From Trichodelitschia bisporula (Eukaryota), in NCBI GenBank assembly GCA_010356995.1, contig ML996687.1, forward strand, positions 931,803 through 995,802: a DNA stretch of 64,000 nt, given 5' to 3'. A program made the translations under genes and the position numbers. Every line of letters begins with the position of its first letter. Position 1 is the stretch's first letter. The notes beneath the pieces were generated by a model that saw only the letters and a program-made list of their open reading frames with translations, was not told where the DNA came from and made no database searches. Below are positions 29,423-42,811 of this stretch, piece by piece.

Positions 29423-31475
29423 TTTGATGCAGACGGTGGTTGAAGGTGATCAAGGTGGAGTACTCTCCAGGTAGGTGAGGAAAGCTGGAGATGGGAACGG
29501 CGGGGAGGTGAAGAGTTGGAGTGGAGATATAAAAGAAGGAAGATCTGTGGACAGAAGGTGGCCTCCTTGGCTCGGTGTTCTGTGACGTGACCACTCACCA
29601 CGGCCGCCTGTGACGACCGCGTGGGGTTTGCGTAGCTGGCTTACGAGTACACGTGACGTCAACACCTCGCAAACCATAGCTGTTCGCATCTCGTGACTCC
29701 CATTCCATATGGAGTGTCTGTACGTTGTTACACTTTGGTACTGCACCTCATGCTGTTCCACCAGAAGAATTGTGGGAACATTACATATTCCGTAGTACGG
29801 TTCGCTGTTCTGCGGGAGACTACGAGGCATAATGCGTAGATGCTCTGTGGATACGTACATCCGTACACTCCGCGGAAACAGTACCGCGCAAGTGACGCCT
29901 CACACTACTTCTCGCCTTTTGCGAAGGGAAAGAAAGCTTACAGAGCATCATGAGTTGAGAAGGCTATTACGGGTTCGGGGGAGGGAGAGCAACATGGGAG
30001 CAAAGGTGGAGGGAACCGTCGGTGGATGTGTGATGGCAATGGAACTTCGAACATTTGACCTGAGTGAACTCGTTAGTCGAAGAAGGCAAGATTGGATAAA
30101 TCAAGTTCATGTCTTTCATCCGTTGATGGATATTTGTGATATGTACGCATCGGTAAAGGTGGAGCTTGGAAAGGTTGACCTGATGGAACTCTTTGATAAA
30201 CTCACGTCTTCCACCCGTTGTTACCCGAATAAGTCAAGGGACAGAATCTCGACGGCCGGCCCGAGGCTTGCGGTGAAAGAATACGAGCGGATCCGGCCGA
30301 CGATTCTGCTCCCCATCCCCCCAGAAAAAGAGCCATCGGCTGTCGGCGTCTGACACCAATATGAGAGCTTCCTCGGCTATCCCTTCCCCATCTCGGTAGG
30401 AATGCGGGCCGTGGAAGGGGCAGAATCGAGGGGCGATACGGGAAGAGATAGGCCCCCAGAGATGGCAAAATGGCGGACATATGCCGCTCCCTGCGGAGTG
30501 CTCCGCATCTTTCTCTCTGTTCTTTTCCGCGGGACTGCGGTACAATATCATGCTTAGACAGGTGCAGTAAGAGATAATCACGTAAACAAATGCAAGGTAC
30601 TGTTGACAATTTTGCTTTGTTCGGCTGGTGAAGCGGGCGACGAAGCGGTTTGGGGAAAGTGGTGGCCGTTTTGATGCTTGGGGGAATGGGTTCACTGATC
30701 GGCGACCGAGTTGCATCATACATCGTACTTCGTCCCATCTCTTGCGCTTCACCTTCACCTTCACTGTCCTTTCCCTCTTTCTTCCTTATCTTTCCTCTCC
30801 TCAATCTTCTTCTACGTCCTCTCCTACTAAGTGAACATTGTAATTGTACTGTATCACCCACTCATCTACATCCGTACGGAGTTCTCTTTTGTCTCCTCAA
30901 CAAACGCCCCTCATCAAATTTCAGCTCGCCTCACCGCCCGCTCCGCCAAAAGCACCCTCACACGCCCACAATAATCCGTAATCAAGCTGCCTCGCCCGTA
31001 TTTCTCGCCGCGCCGGCTCCCGGCTCCAAGGCTCGTGGGTGGTCGGCGGCTCTTCCTCTTCTCCACCCCCATTTCCTCCTTGTATTCCCGCGCCCCCCCG
31101 CCTGCTGTTGTCGCCAACCAACCCACAGTGGCCAAGTTAGCGGTGCCGCGTGCGCCGAGACCGGTAAGTTGGCCTTTCCTGTTATCTGATGATCGAACTT
31201 TTTATCAGATGGCGCCACCTGCACCCCCGATGAAGTCAACTCTTTCCCCTCAGCCTCGAAATCCCCCCTCATTATTTGCCCATCTACTTGCTTGCTTAAG
31301 CAAAGCAGCAAAGAATAACTACTATTCCAATTATTAATTCACATTCGTTCACCATCTGCCTCACTATTAGACCTTCCCTCCTGTCCATCCGCCTTCTCTG
31401 TCGCTGACAATTCCCTTTGCTGGAGTATAGATCTCGCATCGTTCATCGCCCTTCTCCCCCCCAACCTCAACCGCA

Positions 31476-33428
31476 ATGGCAACATTGCAATTACGGCCCT
31501 TCATTCCCTCTGCGTCGGATCCTTCTGACCGGGTGCCACACGAACCTGTCAATGTCGCGCCTCTGCTCACTCGCACTCTCGAGCAAGACGTCGGTCCTTC
31601 GCCTAAGTCCTCGAGCGAGTCGCTGTACTCCGCCGACCAGTCACACAATTCCGACTCTCCTCCGCTCACACCTGCCACCGATGGCACAGCCGACGAAGCA
31701 TTATCACTGGAGATTTCCACTGCCCGCCAGCGTCGCGCGTCGACCACATTGATATCGCAGAATGGCGACACGATTCAACGTTTGCTGGGTGGCGGCGAGA
31801 CTGGCACACAACTCATTGAAAAATACTGCTGCGGCGGTGGCTGCTGTCTACGCAACGCGCAACGTCGTCAGTCTTCACTCACGCCCGGTTTTCACCCGGT
31901 TAAAGTGCCGGATAATCCCGCATTCCGCGCCCTGGAACTGAAGCTCACGCCCTTCTCGCTGGACACCGAGCTCAACACCCTTGCTCCTCTTCCCGACGTT
32001 ACTGTTTCTTTCGAGCCCCTGCCAAAGACGGCGCCGACCCACGTCTCACCAGTCCACGTCCACCCGCCTTCCTTCGTCCAACCCCATCCGCCCTACGAGG
32101 TCTTCTCCGCGCCCGTCCACTGCGCACGCGAGTTGACGAAACCGGGAGCCGAGAAGCGTACCATCCACTTCGACCTGGACGTCACCGACTATCCCGACGA
32201 AGGCGGCGTAGACTTCAAGGTAGGCGGAGCAATTGGCATCGTCCCGCCCAACGATACGAGTGTAGTTGACGATGTCTTCACCGTGCTGGGTGTTCCGACC
32301 TACGTCCGGGACAAGCCGGTCCTGCTTCGCACTACTGGCGGCCGCTGGCCCACCATCTGGGGAGATGACAAGGCCCGCGAACTGGTGACGACACGTCGAG
32401 AGCTGCTCACTTGGTGTTGCGACTTGCAAACCACGCCACCCACCAAGCCGTTGCTCCGCCTGCTCGCTGAGTACGCTACTGAGCCCAACGAGCGCAAGAT
32501 ACTTCTTTATCTCTGCGCTGCCGAAGGTCAAGCGTCATTCTGCGATCTGCGTACGGGACCGCACATCACCATCCCTCAACTTCTACATGCGTTTCCGAGT
32601 GCGAAACCTCCTCTGCATGCGCTGCTCTCCGTTACTACACAGCTCATGCCGCGCTTTTACTCCCTCTCCAACGATCCTCACATCTCATCCTCGCGCGATA
32701 CTGTCTCAGGGCGCCGTCTGATCGAGATGGCGGTGAGCGTTCATGAGACGCCGGATTGGCGCGGCGGCATGCGTACCGGCGTCGGTAGCGGATTCATGGA
32801 GCGTGTGGCAAAGGCTTTCATCTCGGGCAGCAAGTCGGGGGCCAATCCGGCGCCCGAGATCCGCGTGCCCATGTTCCGCGGCCTCATGGCGAACCCGCTC
32901 TCTCGCGAGTTTGTGAGCAGCGGTCCGATGATGCTGATTGGGGCTGGTGTGGGTATGGCACCATTTCGTGGTTTCATCCTAAACCGGGTAAAGAATGCAA
33001 ACTGCGCCAACAAGATATGGCTCGTACAGGGCGTGCGGGACTCGGAACTCGATGAGCTTTATCAGGGCGAGCTAGGCGACCATGAGAAGGACATCAAGCG
33101 CGTCGTTCAGTCCCGAAAGGGCAACCGTGCGCCTGATGAGGCCAAGTACGTGCAAGACGAGGTCCGCATGCAGGCCGATGTTGTGTGGTTTGTCGCCAAT
33201 GCTCTCGACGGCCGCATATTTGTGTGTGGTAGCAGTCGTGGGATGGGCGAGGGTGTTCACGAAGCCCTGGTCGACGTTGCCGTGCGCAAAGGGGGTCTGA
33301 ACCGCGAGCAGGCCGAGGAGTTCTGGCGCGGAAAGAAGAAGGGTGGACAGTACATCGCAGTAAGTCCATTCATATACTCATACCAAAATCCCGCTTGCTG
33401 ACCATCTCGCTTCCAGGAAACGTGGTGA
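31476..33428 (+). CDS. FAD/NADPH-binding oxidoreductase of the CPR/sulfite-reductase-flavoprotein/MTRR superfamily, without a recognisable flavodoxin domain; 1 coding intron
   Basis: PRFYSLS (RxYS), GVGSGF, MLIGAGVGMAPFRGF, KYVQD, IFVCG and terminal YIA|ETW-stop (conserved C-terminal Trp); intron 33360-33416. Confidence 0.85.
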
Positions 33429-33889
33429 GCGCTACAACCAAAAGCTTGTGCCATTTAGACTAGTCGCTTTTCCTTCGCCATGTCAGCAACTCCTGTGCAT
33501 ACCACTGCCGGCATGCGGATATTTCGCCTTGTTTTGTGCATTGATAGAGGCTTACTCATGCGCGGACTCGTGTTCGTCGTCTCGCGCGGATCTTCCTGTT
33601 TAATGGGTGTTGGGTTTTTTTCGGCTTTGTATACAAATAGACGCGTACGACATCGTCTGAGGGCAGAACGAAAGGCATGTGAAAGTGGGACTTCTTTTCG
33701 AGGCAAACTCGACCGGATCATAGGGGAAATATATGAGGCGTACTGGAGTTCTCCTTCGGGTCGGATTTCTGCAGTTAACTCTGTCCGGCGAGTAGAGCTT
33801 CTTGCACCAAGTGTTGATCGGCCTCCCAGTGCATGAACCAGTTGCATCTAGTCTAATCATGGGGATACACAGAGTAGGCAAATGGGAGA

Positions 33890-36778
33890 TCACTGAACCA
33901 TGCCCTTCAGTTCCGGTTCTGCCTCCAGAAGAGAGTGAATCTCTCCTTCAAATCGCTTCCCGTCACTCAACTCGTGGACCGTCGCTCTCAACTCCGCAAA
34001 TACCCCCCTCAACTGTTTCCGCAGCTCGCCCCAATTAGCTGTCTCCCCGCTTGGATTTCTTTCCCCAGAAACCTGAACCCAGCATGCCCCCAAACCGGCA
34101 GCAATGTCCCCCCTCCACACCTCGACCCTCGGCCGTGCGTTACGCATCACAGCTTCCAACCCCAGCAGAGAGGCATGCGTCAACTCTGGCATCGCCAGGA
34201 CCAGCGGATCGGCCAGTATACCCGTCAGTAAGGGTACCAGGCCCTTGAGATGCACCACGGAGTGCACCTCTAGTGCATCCAGCACTGTCGGAAGATGTCC
34301 TAATAGCACCACCGCCAGCCTCGGATATGTGCTGTATGGGCAAACAGACAGTGGATGCAAAATTCCTTGCCTGAGTAGCGTCGTAAGTGCACGCACGCGG
34401 GGACTCCGTAGCGTAAAATGGTCGTCGGGCCTCTGCGGTTGAACCGGAGGATCATTGGGATAGGCAACATTTGTAACTGCTAAGATAGCCGGAATAGAGG
34501 CGCCTATAATGGTGGTAGCTTCATCCTCTGGTGTCAAAGTGGGAAGGTATGTGACGGAGATGTAGAGCGAATCAAGGAACAGCTGAGCCAGGCCGGTCCG
34601 CACAAGCAACCCGGAAGGTGTTACCGCCATCACATTACAAACCAGATCCGCACCCAGTGCGCGGGTTTTAGTGTCGGTATCGTCCAAGATACTAAGCAAG
34701 GTAGGAATGAGGGCACCCCATTCTTTCTCCACCGTCCGGGAGTCAAGCGCACGGCATATCCATGTCAAAAGCGGGAAAACCCATATGCTGTTGGGAGGGA
34801 ACTTCCAGGGATGAGAGACGGAATCATCGAGGCTGAGGTTACCAAAGCGAGGTGCAAGAGGTGTCGCAAGGGGCTTACGCCCGGCTGGTGTGACTGGCGT
34901 TTGCGAGGTGGACGCCTGCGAGAAAAGGGGGCGGAGAGTTAGGCTGAGGAAATGAGCAATGAGAGCGGAGACTAGCTCACTGGTATTCTTAGCTTTAAGT
35001 TGCTTGGCCGCCCTGGATGCTCTGGGAACTGTTGTGGAAATGGACTTGAACTCTTCCGACGCCTTCAAGCTGTCCAGCAAGACTTCCTGATCCGTAACCT
35101 CTGGATTTCGTAGCTGCCATGCCATGATGATGTCAAGCGCAGATTTCATCCACGGCCCTGGAGGAGTCGCAAGTGCTCTCGAAAGCGATTTGCCATCTAA
35201 GAGAGGTCTTAGATTATAGGCTTCAGCAATCCCAAGTTCTTGGGTAGCAGAGGTAAAGCGAGTGTAATCGAAGATCAGTTCTGGAAAAGTTAGTAGACGC
35301 CTGAAAACTTCCGATATATACTTGCTTTCTTGCGCTCCAGGGGTCTCCAAAATCTCGACTAGGAGGGCCGACAGGACTTGCAACCTCCATGTCGGGCCCC
35401 AAGTGCGGATTGCCATGCCCAGTGTGTCGCGGGCGGTTACTTGTCTGTCCTTGAGACTCTTGATTTCCTCCAGGTTTCGGACGCAGAGATTGATCAAGTC
35501 CGTGACTTTGTTTGGCGCTTTGAGGCTTTCCCGAGCCACAGATACGGCTATTGGCGGGGCAGTCTTTGCCCCAGTGGGAGGAGAAGGCTCTGAGACTGTG
35601 ATCCATGGGGTCATAGTTGCAACCACCCATGCTAAAAACGACTCTTCCTCATTATGGACAACGAATGATCCGAACTGGCCGGAAGCGTCCTTGAGCAACA
35701 TTGCGAGTGCATCGTACACAGATCGCCAGTTTCCAGTATCTGGAACTTGCACATTCTCACCAGTTGGGTTGGTGAAGATAGTGGAGTAGAGATTCAGACT
35801 GTCAAAGAACTCAAGAGCCCTTCGCGGGTCCTGTCCCCTGAGAATCTTCTCAAGTTCCATCCAAATGCGTTCCTTGGTGATTTTGAGCTTGAGGGCTTCC
35901 CGAATATCGGGGTGAGCCATGTATCCCAGGGCGTGGTCGTCGATCCGGTAGCCCAGCCTGCATGCAAAGCGTATGAGACGTAAGACACGTAACGGGTCGT
36001 CCTTGAACGTGGTATAGGGTTCAAGTGGGGTGCGAATGAGACCGGCTTTGAGATCTTGAAGGCCCTGCTCGGTGAAGTCTTCGATGGATGACGTGTTGAG
36101 GTTGTAAAACATGGCGTTTATGGTGGCATCACGTCGCAGGGCATCTTCTTTTGCCGTTCCAAACTCCATTTGCGGGTTGCGGCTGTCACTGGTGTACGTT
36201 TCCTTACGTAGGTTCACCAGGTCGACTTCCAGGCCTAAGATTTTGCTGGTAACAGTCTCCAGGTGCTTTGACTTGTCCGGATTTGCTTCGATCTTGGTGA
36301 GACTACCAGCCTTTCTCTTCGCGCCTTCGAGCCCGTATTTGGCAGCATTTCCAGGCGCATCGAGGTACTCTTGCAGACGAAGACCAAATTGGTAGCCCGT
36401 CAGCTTGTTAATGCCGACATCAACGTCGTGGCTCTCCAAGCCTAGCAGCTTGTCTCTCACCCATCCTCCTGTGAATCGGAGTGTCAAGGGTTCTTCGGCA
36501 AGTTGGTTTGGCACAGACTCAGCCGGCGGCGGATCCTGCTCAATGTGCTCCGCAACGTCGAGCAACAGGCGCTTAAGATTGGCTTCTTGGTCGTTGAGGG
36601 GGATTGCAGTGTCCGTCATGTCTTCCAACTTCCTCTTCTTGACTGGCCTGAAATCCGATGTTTGGGGACTGCTGGATCGATCGGACATGGAACGAAAGGG
36701 AATGGACGAATGTTCGCGGCTCGCCGATGGGAACCTCCTCGCACTTTTAAGTAGCAGCCTCAGCCCGATTCGACTCAT
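33890..36778 (-). CDS. CCA1: tRNA CCA-adding nucleotidyltransferase with an in-frame C-terminal Tti2-like helical domain
   Basis: LRFTGGWVRDKLLG..DVDV, HLET, DLVNLRKETY, EDALRRDATINA, DDPLRVLRLIRF and PGPWM..MAWQL; the frame then stays open for about 370 aa with LRPLF, TPAGRK, PWK, LIPTLLSILDD, RTGL and YLPTLTP motifs. Confidence 0.9.
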   Translation of the reverse strand: MSRIGLRLLLKSARRFPSASREHSSIPFRSMSDRSSSPQTSDFRPVKKRKLEDMTDTAIPLNDQEANLKRLLLDVAEHIEQDPPPAESVPNQLAEEPLTLRFTGGWVRDKLLGLESHDVDVGINKLTGYQFGLRLQEYLDAPGNAAKYGLEGAKRKAGSLTKIEANPDKSKHLETVTSKILGLEVDLVNLRKETYTSDSRNPQMEFGTAKEDALRRDATINAMFYNLNTSSIEDFTEQGLQDLKAGLIRTPLEPYTTFKDDPLRVLRLIRFACRLGYRIDDHALGYMAHPDIREALKLKITKERIWMELEKILRGQDPRRALEFFDSLNLYSTIFTNPTGENVQVPDTGNWRSVYDALAMLLKDASGQFGSFVVHNEEESFLAWVVATMTPWITVSEPSPPTGAKTAPPIAVSVARESLKAPNKVTDLINLCVRNLEEIKSLKDRQVTARDTLGMAIRTWGPTWRLQVLSALLVEILETPGAQESKYISEVFRRLLTFPELIFDYTRFTSATQELGIAEAYNLRPLLDGKSLSRALATPPGPWMKSALDIIMAWQLRNPEVTDQEVLLDSLKASEEFKSISTTVPRASRAAKQLKAKNTSELVSALIAHFLSLTLRPLFSQASTSQTPVTPAGRKPLATPLAPRFGNLSLDDSVSHPWKFPPNSIWVFPLLTWICRALDSRTVEKEWGALIPTLLSILDDTDTKTRALGADLVCNVMAVTPSGLLVRTGLAQLFLDSLYISVTYLPTLTPEDEATTIIGASIPAILAVTNVAYPNDPPVQPQRPDDHFTLRSPRVRALTTLLRQGILHPLSVCPYSTYPRLAVVLLGHLPTVLDALEVHSVVHLKGLVPLLTGILADPLVLAMPELTHASLLGLEAVMRNARPRVEVWRGDIAAGLGACWVQVSGERNPSGETANWGELRKQLRGVFAELRATVHELSDGKRFEGEIHSLLEAEPELKGMVQ

Positions 36779-38229
36779 ATATTCATTGCTGGACAAGTTG
36801 CGTGGTAAAGCTGGCGAAGGGATTCTACCAGGACTGCGTCAGAAGCGGCTGGTGTACGTGAAAGGGAAAGCAAAGTGGGACAGCGTGAAAATTGAATGCG
36901 TCGTAGTTGCAGTCGCAAAAGCTGTAAGTTGAAAGTGTGAAGAGGAGCGGAGACGATGACGAAGAACCGAAAGGTGCACAAAAGGCCCGGTCCGGGCGTT
37001 GATTCAGGCAGCCATTTTGTTCGTTCCTCAGGCAATAGTTGACAAGCAGCGGAATCGAGGCTGACGAGCCCGCCGTCTTCATCTCAAGATACAGAAAGCT
37101 TCAATCGCTACAGTCAGCACCAGCAAACAACAGAACTTTTCCTCTTCATTCGTAGGCCATCCCATACCACTAACCAACATGACAATCTCTGACAGTCCTA
37201 CTTGCTATAAGCTGCCAATTTTTTCTTGACCTCTTTCTGAGCTTCTCGGCGACGACATCTTGCTACGGGTAGCTCCTGCGGACAGGACATCGGCCGCTCA
37301 TCTATGCGTAGAACCTAGTGCATATATACGCTCCAAGCTCCCATGGACTTAATTCTTGTGACTCGCCAAAAAATCACCTCGATACGGTAGAAACAAGGCG
37401 CGCGCTTCCGAGGTAACCATGGCTGTTCTTCCGCTTCTCCGTCGGATAAACGATCGGCTTTCCATCTGCCTGGTCAATCTACAGCACGTTTCCTGAGGCG
37501 AAGCGGATTTACCCGATCCCATCGTGATGCTCGGATTGCCCAGCGGTGTACTACGTACCTGCGCGCGAGTAAATGGCACATGCCGCGGGAAAAGTAAGTT
37601 GAAGACGTCACGGACGCAAAAGCGCAAATGGCGCATGGAGGTTCAAAGGTGGGGGGGAGGAAGTCATCGCAAACGTCCTTTACGCAAACTAAGCGCGAAC
37701 AAAATGACGCCCCCAGCAAACGATAAGATCTATGGTGCTCCGTAAACAGCTATACGTGAATTAATCGTCTCCGACGGGGGCAGAGTGGGACTCCGGTATC
37801 CAAGAACTCCCCCGGGCATTACCGTGATGTCGTTCAGGTATTGCTTCTCCACCCCTCCCGCAATCGTCCAGTAGTCCAGCGCCCCCAGTGCCCCTCCCCC
37901 TCCCCCCCTCACCCCACCATCAACAAGCGGCCAAGCAACCCCTCCCACCAGTAGACTTTACGGCCCCGCCCCGGATTTCTCCCTGGTTCTTAAAGTTGCG
38001 CTGCGAAATTCCTTTAAACGTCCCGACAATCCCCTCCCTCACAGGCTTCCCGTCATCCTTTCCCCAACTCCCCTCGCACCGTCAACCTTTCCTCCCCCTC
38101 ATAACTTGCTCCATTGACCCTCAATCCGTTCACCAAACAAACCTAGAGCTCCGTAAGTCGCGTTAACGTCATATCTCGTTGAACTCTCCTGACTTGGCTT
38201 CGTGCTCTCAGTGCCAGTACTCTGCAATC

Positions 38230-40005: not shown

Positions 40006-41630
40006 ATGTCCGAGGGACAGATCTTAAAGGCCGATAAGGACTTCACGGCGGAGGTTGACAATCAGCTCCCGGCCGCCCAGGAACTCGCGAAGGTATTAAC
40101 TCTTACAGATCCCGCGGGCATCGCTAATCCACCATTTTAGACTAATGTCGCTGCCGCGATAGAGAAGCTGTCGGCTTTGGAAAAACAGACGCGCCAAGTA
40201 CGTATTTCAGTCCTCAACCCTCCTTGCTGCGGCGGCTTACCTGTTTGCAGGCCTCCGACCTCCCCTCCACTTCACGTCTGCTCATCGGTATCGTCACGAT
40301 ATGTAAAGAAGTCGGCGACTGGAATCTGCTCAACGAGCAGGTCCTGCTGCTGTCGAAGAAGCATGGCCAGCTCAAGCAAGCTGTCACCAAGATGGTGCAG
40401 ACAGTGATGGGCTTCCTGGACCGAACTCCCAACCTCGAAACCAAGCTATCAGTCATCGAGACACTGCGTACAGTGACGGAAGGGAAGATCTTCGTTGAAG
40501 TCGAGCGCGCCCGCGTCACACGAATCCTCTCCAACATAAAGAAGGAGCAGGGCGACATCAAGGCTGCCACGGACATCCTCTGTGAACTCCAAGTTGAAAC
40601 CTTCGGGTCTATGTCCAAGCGGGAGAAGACCGAGTTCATTCTCGATCAAGTTGGGCTCTGCATACAAAAGGGCGACTGGACACAGGCTGGTATTTTGAGC
40701 CGGAAAATCAGTACAAAGTACTTTACGAGGAAGCCCAAGAAAACATCTGCAGAGCTTGAGAAGGAGAGAGAGGAAAAAGCCAAGAAGGAGAAGAAAAAGA
40801 GCGCCGATGAACCAGAGGCTGAACCCGAAGAGGACGTAACCCCTCTGAAGTTGAGATACTACGAGCAACAGATCCAACTGGCCAAGCACGACGACAAATA
40901 TCTTGAGGTTTGCAAGCATTACTGGCAGGTTCTGGACACGGAATCTATTGAATCAAACGCAACTCTGTCCAAGGAGGTGTGTTTGCCTATTTCCTTTGTA
41001 CTTGTCAGTCTAACTCGACTAACGGCACTCAAGGTTTTGAAGCGGTTGGCGTGGTACGCCATACTGGCCCCGCACAGCAACGAGCAGTCTGATCTGCTCC
41101 ACCGCGTAAAGGCCGATACTCGATACGAACAGCTACCGCATGAAGCTCAGCTGCTACGACTGTTCACACTGCACGAGTTGATGAGGTGGCCAATTGTTGC
41201 GAGGCAGTTTGAATCACATCTGACAGATGATGAAGTCTTCGACAGCGAGCCGGACCAATCTGACGACCCCAAGGCGTATCAGCGTTGGGAGGACTTTCGT
41301 AAGCGCATTATCGAACATAACGTCCGCGTGATCGCCAAGTATTACACCCGCATTCAGATGCCTAGATTGACGCAGCTCCTCGACTTGACGGAAGATGAGA
41401 CGGAGAAGTACATCAGCGAGCTGGTCACTTCAAAGACGATCTACGCCAAAATCGACCGCCCCGCCAAGATTGTCAGCTTTGCCAAGCCGCGCGATGCCGA
41501 CGACGTGTTGAACGAGTGGAGCGGAAATATGAGAAGCCTGCTGGGGCTTCTCGAGCGCATCGATCACTTGATCACCAAAGAGGAGATGATGGCTAGGATC
41601 CAGCCCAAGAGCGTCAAGGCAAGTGCGTAA
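40006..41630 (+). CDS. RPN5: 26S proteasome lid subunit Rpn5 (PCI domain), 3 introns
   Basis: LKADKDFT, LEKQTRQ|ASD, KKHGQLKQA, VTEGKIFVEVERAR, ELQVETFGSM, EHNVRVIAKYY and AKIDRP. Confidence 0.96.
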
Positions 41631-41897: not shown

Positions 41898-42431
41898 TCA
41901 GGAACGTCCGCTGCCAAAGTCCTCCATGTTCTTTGCAGCTGGGTCCACGTGCGCGAGTCGAACTGGTTGAGACTCGCGGCGAGTTGCCGTCGGCTCAGGG
42001 GCGTCGACGTTGGCTGAGCGACGGACACCGATGATGTTTTCTATCACTTTGGCTTTGGAAATGGCTCTCTTGTAGCGATCATCAAAGTCAGACACGGCTT
42101 CCTCGGTGTTCTGTGTCGACAGACTCTCGGGCTCGCTCAAAGCGTAAAGAGCCGTAATGTGGCGCTCTAAGCGCGGATTTGAAGGCAACGCTTCGAGTTG
42201 TGACGAGGCTGGCGCGGTGGAGTCTGAGACCACCCTCGATGATTGAACAGCCCAGACACATGCTTGTCCGTGAAGCGCGCCAACTGCAACGAACTTTTCG
42301 AAGGCCTTCTCGAGGCCAAAGACCCGCCCTTCGATGCGTCCTGCGCGCGAGCCATCCTGGACGCCTTCCTGGTAACCTTCCTCGTAGTACCGATCCTCGA
42401 GGTTGAGGATGTCGTCGAAAAGATCATCCAT
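41898..42431 (-). CDS. LTO1: Lto1/ORAOV1-like protein (Yae1_N, deca-GX3 motif), CIA adaptor for Rli1
   Basis: MDDLFDDILNLEDRYYEEGYQEGVQDGSRAGRIEGRVFGLEKAFEKF with GX3 periodicity. Confidence 0.8.
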   Translation of the reverse strand: MDDLFDDILNLEDRYYEEGYQEGVQDGSRAGRIEGRVFGLEKAFEKFVAVGALHGQACVWAVQSSRVVSDSTAPASSQLEALPSNPRLERHITALYALSEPESLSTQNTEEAVSDFDDRYKRAISKAKVIENIIGVRRSANVDAPEPTATRRESQPVRLAHVDPAAKNMEDFGSGRS

Positions 42432-42708
42432 AGGTGTGTGAAAGGAGTAGTAGCAATGGGAAGTCGACAAGGTGACCTCGTATAAAAATGGTTGAGCCGG
42501 GAAGGAGAAGAGGGGAACGTGATGGCGACGGTAGGCGGAGCGGGGTTGAGCGGGGTGGGGCGGGGCGGAGGTGTGATGGCGGCAGGCTGCCTGCCGTGCC
42601 TGACCGTTTGATGCTTGGCAGAAATTTAGCGGGGCTAGTAAGAATGCGGGGCGCAACTCGCGACTTTGCTTGACTATTTCATAGTGCCAAGCGGCCCCGC
42701 CATGTGAG

Positions 42709-42749
42709 TCGACGAAGCAGTGATATCGACGAAGCAGTGATATCGACGA
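42709..42749. repeat. 17-bp tandem repeat TCGACGAAGCAGTGATA x2.4 in the LTO1/MES1 divergent promoter
   Basis: Exact copies at 42709-42725 and 42726-42742, partial copy to 42749. Confidence 0.9.
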
Positions 42750-42811
42750 CAACGGCCGCATACTTCAGCATCAGCTCAATCAACCGCTATCCCGTTGTTC
42801 ACACCTCCCGA

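Follow-up and report, generated by a model that had tools for sequence, protein, structure and literature searches.

A 65-Nucleotide Coding Intron at the Joint of CCA1 and TTI2 in Trichodelitschia bisporula: A Probable Splice Switch Between Two Proteins

We analyzed a 64,000-nucleotide (nt) stretch of the genome of the fungus Trichodelitschia bisporula (assembly GCA_010356995.1, contig ML996687.1, positions 931,803 to 995,802), referred to here as the window, whose own numbering is used throughout. On its minus strand, a CCA-adding enzyme reads in frame into a Tti2-like domain. In the yeasts that have been studied, CCA1 and TTI2 are two genes, each of them essential, and Tel2-Tti1-Tti2 is a co-chaperone for PIKK kinases such as TOR. 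We think it probable that this one locus has two products, a 597-amino-acid (aa) CCA enzyme and a 947-aa CCA-Tti2 fusion, and that a 65-nt coding intron selects between them. A spliced mRNA encoding the stand-alone CCA enzyme exists, and the alignments described below indicate that the switch intron is conserved both as a splice unit and as protein-coding sequence.

The genomic open frame spans 33890..36778 on the minus strand (962 codons plus a stop codon at 33892-33890) and encodes, in order, the CCA enzyme, a linker and the Tti2-like part. A deposited protein with 100% identity to it is from T. bisporula and is annotated with both domains. Pfam places the PolyA_pol head domain (PF01743) at residues 100-249 (36032..36481, minus strand; E = 2.9e-22, 79.8 bits vs. 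a cut-off of 23) and PolyA_pol_RNAbd at residues 299-335 (E = 2.2e-5), followed by Tti2 (PF10521), all as a preliminary description of this DNA had expected. The enzyme body and tail (residues 95-568, 35075..36496, minus strand) align with residues 36-489 of 502 of the fungal cca1 (9ns2_A, E = 2.1e-77). The solved cca2 (9ns4_A) aligns to the CCA part with E = 2.5e-76, and in a search with a profile of the tail plus Tti2 the tail additionally matches cca2 residues 415-473. Because the alignment with these solved fungal enzymes is end to end, the CCA-adding enzyme is complete by about residue 570. The protein carries the stretches GGWVRDKLLGLESHDVDV, ALRRDATINA and KDDPLRVLR, which contain GGWVRD...DVDV, RRD and DDPLR; we take the motifs GGxVRD..DxD, RRD and DDxxR to be catalytic and nucleotide-selecting in class II CCA-adding enzymes. 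Judged from its sequence, the CCA part is a class II CCA-adding enzyme with the predicted activity of adding CCA to tRNA 3′ ends. The 962-codon frame and the cca1 alignment bear out the earlier statement that a complete CCA1 runs without a stop through the linker. Its end was rightly placed near the linker, although the position given, about 35065, is some 25 nt off ('TDQ' lies at 35089-35087), which is immaterial. The linker itself (residues 572-599, 34982..35065, minus strand) is rich in Lys and Ala; its length and sequence differ among relatives, and it is always open.

The second part of the frame is a Tti2 domain by several measures. Residues 583-860 (34199..35032, minus strand) match PF10521 over profile positions 16-277 of 279 (E = 1.4e-53, 182.7 bits vs. 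a cut-off of 25.2). With the tail-plus-Tti2 profile, human TELO2-interacting protein 2 is recovered (7f4u_C residues 216-435, E = 3e-8; 9wjy_B, human residues 197-416, E about 3e-8), and the first 60 positions of the profile match the extreme C-terminus of cca1/cca2. In a HMMER search with residues 575-962, the Tti2 part is ~30-40% identical to hundreds of fungal Tti2 proteins. The in-frame order of CCA enzyme and Tti2 domain, recognized earlier from the sequence alone, is thereby upheld; we also checked whether the C-terminal part might lack similarity to Tti2, and the Pfam score shows that it does not. The N-terminal ~160-195 residues of canonical Tti2, which precede the RPLF segment, are absent from the window protein. 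Canonical Tti2 proteins align to it only from their residue 166-196 onward, and no counterpart of their N-terminal region was found anywhere in the 64-kb window. In the alignment, the region is likewise absent from other Dothideomycetes and from Arthoniomycetes. In-frame Met codons occur at residues 544 and 552 and then none before residue 717 (ATG 34630), and Met occurs in the linker of only 7/45 sequences (44 cluster representatives, introduced below, plus the window). The locus thus offers neither the separate gene nor the start codon of its own that a stand-alone Tti2 would have. Both of these features, the missing N-terminal part and the lack of an in-frame Met close to where the second domain begins, had been noticed in the preliminary description.

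The RNA data are assembled contigs from two public runs of one sample (X1 and X2), which cover ~95% of the window; we examined them over 33400-37300. The run type is on record only as a guess ('RNA?'), and we infer cDNA from three splice-type joints and a very uneven depth (30 to over 8000). X1 record 1 (5457 nt) and X2 record 4 (1843 nt) match the window with 0 differing letters and skip two pieces of it. The first is a 45-nt GC-AG intron (GCAAGT...TACTAAC...CAG; 35281..35325, minus strand), which is in frame and stop-free and is therefore hidden in the raw open frame; its position coincides with a gap in the protein models P0013 and P0036 and with a frame break in most related loci. The second is the switch intron (34916..34980, minus strand), a 65-nt (3n+2) GT-AG intron (GTGAGC...CTAAC...CAG) that sits exactly at the joint of the CCA enzyme and Tti2. 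The cut is ambiguous by one base (34915/6-34979/80), and only the chosen register gives GT..AG. Depth in the bin that holds this intron is 802.4, exactly the value predicted by skipping (1420.5 x 74/131), and so no assembled contig covers the intron. Upstream, the contigs are unspliced from 35326 to at least 37099.

Removal of 65 nt shifts the frame, so that the CCA enzyme ends at the TAA at 34877-34875. With both introns removed, the CCA frame reads ...KAKNT-SVHLANASHTSRA before this stop and encodes the 597-aa enzyme, whose out-of-frame tail (34875..34915, minus strand) consists of a split codon plus 12 codons. A transcript that loses the 45-nt intron but keeps the 65-nt one would encode 947 aa. 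The single fused polypeptide proposed earlier is therefore not what these contigs encode: the RNA form found in this one sample is spliced at the joint. Splicing of transcripts to a stop ahead of about 35000 had been named as evidence that would count against that proposal, and it is nearly what we see; the in-frame continuity of the genomic DNA stands. The deposited model P0002 (887 aa) has junction introns at 35029-34944 and 34878-34833 and an upstream first exon that are not those of the RNA contigs, and we therefore set it aside as a guide; the spliced contigs show none of these features at 34833-35029 and at about 36640-37640 (minus strand). The same model leaves the 45-nt intron in place.

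When retained, the switch intron encodes residues 600-621 (SELVSALIAHFLSLTLRPLFSQ, 22 codons), the conserved start of the Tti2 domain. The consensus of this peptide in all relatives is GELTxALIxHFLxLTIRPLFxK/Q, and its RPLF core is common to canonical stand-alone Tti2 proteins. Since the peptide belongs to the Tti2 domain, Tti2 needs retention; the rest of the Tti2-like part (residues 622-962, 33893..34915, minus strand) is likewise read only with the intron retained. Past the spliced stop, six out-of-frame ATGs precede the first in-frame ATG, that of residue 717, and the frame that would be placed in register with Tti2 by splicing contains a TGA upstream and no ATG. With this layout, a complete Tti2 domain is translatable only from intron-retaining RNA. 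The peptide is conserved while its His, Phe, Pro, Ile and Leu codons vary synonymously, the mark of selection at the protein level. As its 22 codons are conserved as Tti2 sequence, the intron would also have to be retained and translated.

We compared the joint across related loci by scanning metagenome contigs with the junction alignment, which gave 189 pattern matches, 87 relatives and finally 80 loci. Dereplication at 90% identity left 44 clusters, and the window was added to make 45 sequences. Acceptors were assigned as the first AG at least 8 nt past the presumed branch A, which is our own heuristic and not a measurement; an earlier heuristic that favored YAG gave other lengths, some of them 3n, in certain loci and was replaced by this rule. 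The CCA tail passes into Tti2 in a single in-frame tblastn alignment in 79/80 loci, the one exception (L080) being an unfused CCA gene. At the homologous position, 79/79 loci have GTGAGC in codon phase 1, and the frame is open across the junction in 44/44 cluster representatives. The intron is 65 nt long in 41 sequences, 71 nt in three and 62 nt in one, hence 3n+2 in 45/45, and a stop follows 1-29 codons past the splice in every one of the 45. The acceptor is CAG in 22/45 and AAG in 23/45. The order in the lineage of the window is CCA tail, a stretch of 21-46 codons without a fixed sequence (counted from the WQL motif to the donor codon), then GELT...RPLF. The search for mRNA-like contigs, with the other introns out and the switch intron in, returned none among the 80 loci, all of which look genomic and so are uninformative on isoforms.

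Codon usage inside the intron points to the splice signals themselves. The codon for Glu601 is GAG in 45/45 sequences, compared to about 50% GAG in other conserved Glu columns, and the codon for Leu602 begins with C in all of them. Leu613 is CTT in 40/43 and Thr614 is ACC in 36/42, while other conserved residues of the intron, His, Phe, Pro, Ile and the remaining Leu, are encoded by freely varying codons. Relative codon entropy is 0.64 inside the intron (12 columns) and 0.88 outside (38 columns; Mann-Whitney p = 0.008); as the sequences are related this is no strict probability, yet adjacent synonymous sites are near saturation. On this comparison, synonymous sites are fixed exactly at the splice signals, in the codons of the donor and of the branch region. 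The G-E-L and L-T residues whose codons carry these signals are missing from canonical Tti2.

A further element, AAGCUUACC, lies ~36 nt into the intron in L006-L079 and similar loci and is not present in the window. The letters AAG CTT ACC AT, which hardly vary, are those of the intron donor region (CAT) GGT GAG CTT in reverse complement, and they match the 5′ end of U1 small nuclear RNA. The minimum-energy fold pairs the donor with AAGCUUACC in 26/45 sequences. The mean z-score of this stem over the 45 sequences is only -0.5, no covariation was found among them, and the window itself is without the stem. AAG CTT ACC AT may be either an odd CUUAC branch site or part of a stem that masks the 5′ splice site.

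Several public protein models that have no Tti2 part end exactly where splicing of the switch intron would end them. P0182 (Cladosporium halotolerans) ends '...EEVKKHGQTG', which is the tail that splicing gives in L011 and loci like it. P0218 ends '...KDGQTDK' and P0223 '...RGMKNEI', the spliced tails predicted for L049 and L071, respectively. P0159 ('...KKKD-AESRGDRARS') diverges from its genomic cousins at the G-E codon, and in Ascochyta lentis a 552-aa model ending '...ESDN' stands beside a 905-aa fused model ('...ESDSELPQRLASHFL'). Tails of this kind cannot result from simple open reading frame calling on unspliced DNA; the models may have come from RNA contigs or from intron-aware prediction. 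P0166 and P0170 (Dothideomycetes sp. NU459) are two annotated isoforms with a donor at or near the G-E codon and different in-frame acceptors, one dropping part of the conserved segment and the other ~105 residues. If the locus is read as proposed here, most public annotations of it are wrong: they are fused without the switch, contain invented introns (the deposited model included), or start Tti2 in the CCA tail.

The fusion is widespread. The exhaustive HMMER search with residues 575-962 returned 566 proteins at E<=1e-3. Among the best 150 of these, nine have a full CCA enzyme in front, 42 have a CCA C-terminal tail only, because their open reading frames begin at the upstream intron, and 99 have neither. 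A query with the CCA part returned 157 proteins at E<=1e-20; the Tti2 part is present in 78 of the best 120, with the intron-encoded segment preserved in 67 of the 78. The fused models come from many orders of Dothideomycetes (Alternaria, Bipolaris, Pyrenophora, Plenodomus, Dothistroma, Cladosporium, Macrophomina, Diplodia and others) and, beyond that class, from Arthoniomycetes (Coniocarpon, Chrysothrix) and Sarea. Going by these models, fusion is the norm in Dothideomycetes. Sordariomycete CCA enzymes among the listed CCA homologs are mostly 520-550 aa and unfused. The architecture was earlier suspected to be lineage-wide and little studied, and both halves of that suspicion hold: to the counts above we can add that we found no paper that pairs both genes.

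Fused models of a second kind occur in Eurotiomycetes (Helicocarpus and four Aspergillus species) and in Thozetella. These retain the Tti2 N-terminal region, with a Met directly past the CCA end that is aligned with the start of stand-alone Tti2. P0053, P0118, P0157 and P0244 contain a complete Tti2 whose start Met comes straight after the CCA end. Such models, known from protein models alone, look like tandem neighbors that gene callers have joined, and the side-by-side arrangement of CCA1 and TTI2 seems to extend well beyond the lineage of the true fusion. The two architectures together suggest an old adjacency of CCA1 and TTI2, followed by deletion of the CCA stop and the Tti2 N-terminus.

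In the reading that we consider probable, splicing of the 65-nt intron would yield the stand-alone 597-aa CCA enzyme, and a fraction of transcripts would keep the intron. Only these could read through into Tti2 and give the 947-aa CCA-Tti2 protein, which would then supply the Tti2 function of the cell. Through the splicing ratio the cell would obtain much CCA enzyme and little Tti2. The fusion itself probably arose from tandem CCA1-TTI2 through loss of the CCA stop and of ~160-195 N-terminal Tti2 codons. A study in yeast (PMC4889661) describes cells as viable with very low Tti2, even when made via read-through of an ochre codon, and C-terminal truncations as not viable; a minor isoform could therefore suffice. 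A stronger version would make a minor intron-retention isoform, a ~105-kDa CCA-Tti2 protein, the sole source of essential Tti2 in Dothideomycetes and their allies, with the switch perhaps tuned, in most lineages, by the U1-like AAGCUUACC masking the 5′ splice site; this we regard as doubtful.

A number of points weigh against the splice switch. RNA that retains the intron was not found among the assembled contigs of the two runs from one sample, and rare variants are lost in such contigs. Contigs, the sole RNA evidence here, also cannot show transcript starts or single molecules, and we infer both the retained form starting at the CCA promoter and its 947-aa protein. The AAG acceptor of 23/45 lineages is a weak 3′ splice site. 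The spliced mRNA would bear ~1 kb of Tti2 sequence as a 3′ untranslated region, which is unusual. A second TTI2 elsewhere in the genome is possible, although word-based searches found none; the one for a shorter stand-alone Tti2, in which the 8000 best word-sharing candidates were scored, gave eight matches, none of them named for this organism.

The alternative to which we give most thought is a pair of overlapping units, possible in our estimate but unlikely. An inner promoter would make an intron-keeping mRNA translated from Met544 or Met552 into a Tti2 of ~410-420 aa, CCA transcripts would always be spliced, and there would be no fusion. In-frame continuity is needed under this model as well, and Met544 (PWM) is present in 45/45 related sequences and Met552 (MAWQL) in 44/45. 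Both lie, however, in a motif that unfused lineages also have in their CCA enzymes, and no second function is required to explain why they are conserved. The first ~50 residues of such a Tti2 would be CCA tail, and an isolated piece of this kind as a Tti2 N-terminus is unprecedented. The 42 of the best 150 models that begin in the CCA tail fit an internal start, though they reflect the upstream intron; in X2, the contig over the 3′ part has a mean depth of 791 vs. 438 for the one over the 5′ part, which is a poor measure. No contig has a retained intron or an internal 5′ end, features that contigs cannot show. A variant of the splice switch itself, improbable in our view, would have the fusion cut in the Lys-rich linker to free a shortened Tti2. 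As expected of an exposed loop, the linker is basic and varies (KQLKAKNT in T. bisporula; in relatives KKKG, KKHG and KAKR), but it holds no conserved cleavage motif, and neither its length of 21-46 codons nor its sequence is fixed.

Two explanations remain. It is very improbable that the locus makes essentially one CCA-Tti2 polypeptide, with splicing as noise or artifact. The uninterrupted frame of 962 codons and the annotation of 78 of the best 120 CCA homologs as fused would agree with this, but the spliced joint is present in contigs of both runs and the intron is covered by none. Splice signals are kept at synonymous sites, a 3n+2 length and a nearby stop are seen in 45/45 sequences, and independent protein models end at spliced tails. 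Conversely, the Tti2-like part could be a relic, left untranslated in the 3′ untranslated region of an always-spliced mRNA, with Tti2 function coming from elsewhere. Only the spliced form was assembled, and Tti2 lacks its canonical N-terminal part here. Yet the frame across the junction, over about 125-170 codons that begin in the CCA tail and reach into the Tti2 domain, is free of stops in 44/44 representatives, and in most of the 80 loci the tblastn matches span the 436-residue query of tail and Tti2 wholly or for the greater part. The Pfam match (E = 1.4e-53), identity of about 40% maintained across classes, and synonymous variation beneath conserved residues inside the intron indicate translation, and no second Tti2 of the organism surfaced in the word-based searches. 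We hold a relic to be extremely improbable.

If the splice switch is real, it adds a deeply conserved, function-switching alternative splicing event to the few known in fungi. A real fusion would link tRNA 3′-end maturation and the chaperoning of TOR, ATR and Tra1 physically or quantitatively, and would show that Tti2 can do without its N-terminal third or have it replaced. Should the fusion also be the sole source of Tti2, PIKK/TOR biogenesis would be coupled to the expression, and perhaps the localization, of a tRNA maturation enzyme. The N-terminal 30 residues of the frame (MSRIGLRLLLKSARRFPSAS...; 36689..36778, minus strand) are Arg-rich and, from this composition, presequence-like. An in-frame stop lies at 36841, 20 codons 5′ of the first ATG, and behind the presequence-like N-terminus there are further in-frame ATGs at 36688 (Met31) and 36619 (Met54), all within 36619-36778. 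Yeast CCA1 likewise has several in-frame starts behind a presequence-like N-terminus, and its multiple starts distribute the enzyme among the mitochondria, the nucleus and the cytosol. Tti2 could be sorted in the same way if the fusion exists. The fungal class that shares the locus and its reading frame includes many crop pathogens and lichen allies.

The neighboring genes are unrelated to the CCA-Tti2 locus. A FAD/NAD-binding oxidoreductase (FAD_binding_1 and NAD_binding_1; 31431-33398, plus strand) is convergent with it, and its transcript overlaps the 3′ end of the locus. The third splice-like loose end of the contigs, at 33417, belongs to this plus-strand gene. It continues with sequence from just before the end of the open reading frame at 31431-33398 (about 33370-33417, plus strand); the oxidoreductase gene probably has its last intron near 33370-33417 and a different C-terminus. 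Rpn5 (PSMD12/CSN4_N, PCI and RPN5_C; 40146-41627, plus strand) and a Yae1-like protein (Yae1_N domain; 41901-42764, minus strand) are ordinary neighbors.

The architecture is visible in databases and undiscussed in the literature, while gene fusion and function-switching splicing are each of a known kind. Our searches for literature linking Tti2 with the CCA enzyme (including CCA1, tRNA nucleotidyltransferase and gene fusion) found none, and those on CCA-adding enzymes with alternative splicing, fungi or fusion returned nothing relevant by title and abstract. For Tti2 in filamentous fungi, a TOR review mentions the protein once, in its abbreviation list only. Supplements 1-12 and part of table 33 of a Cladosporium fulvum splicing study (PMC11694984) hold no row for the gene.

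Compared to known systems, the CCA part has the PolyA_pol head and RNA-binding domains of yeast Cca1, S. pombe cca1/cca2 and human TRNT1, and it matches 9ns2_A and 9ns4_A from end to end. It differs from them in that its frame has no stop of its own; a stop arises only when the 65 nt are spliced. With yeast Tti2 and human TTI2 (7f4u, 7ole, 9wjy), the window Tti2 shares PF10521 and the profile match. Unlike canonical Tti2, it is without the ~160-195 N-terminal residues and a start of its own, and a CCA enzyme precedes it in frame. The tandem CCA1-TTI2 of Eurotiomycetes and Thozetella (P0053, P0118, P0244) has the same order and orientation, and some of its models are merged into proteins of ~1000-1240 aa. 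There, however, Tti2 keeps its full N-terminal region and Met and is without the G-E-L and L-T codons that bear the splice signals.

The closest parallels in splicing are of two kinds. Exitrons, introns with coding sequence that lie within protein-coding exons, are known mainly from plants and animals; among the matches listed in our search, we found no fungal case by title or abstract. As in an exitron, the switch intron is fully coding within an exon, and its splicing, like that of an exitron whose length is not 3n, shifts the frame. The difference is that the spliced form at the window is the normal enzyme and not a truncated by-product. In fungi, PMC3597508 describes conserved alternative splicing of SKI7/HBS1 and two Ptc7 proteins. 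These cases are like the window in that an old splicing event, conserved across classes, picks one of two distinct proteins. The retained intron of PTC7 is translated and hence itself coding, as is the switch intron. In contrast to SKI7/HBS1 and PTC7, the two functions at the window, tRNA 3′-end synthesis and PIKK chaperoning, are unrelated, the predicted long form joins what were ancestrally two genes apart, and splicing frameshifts into a stop.

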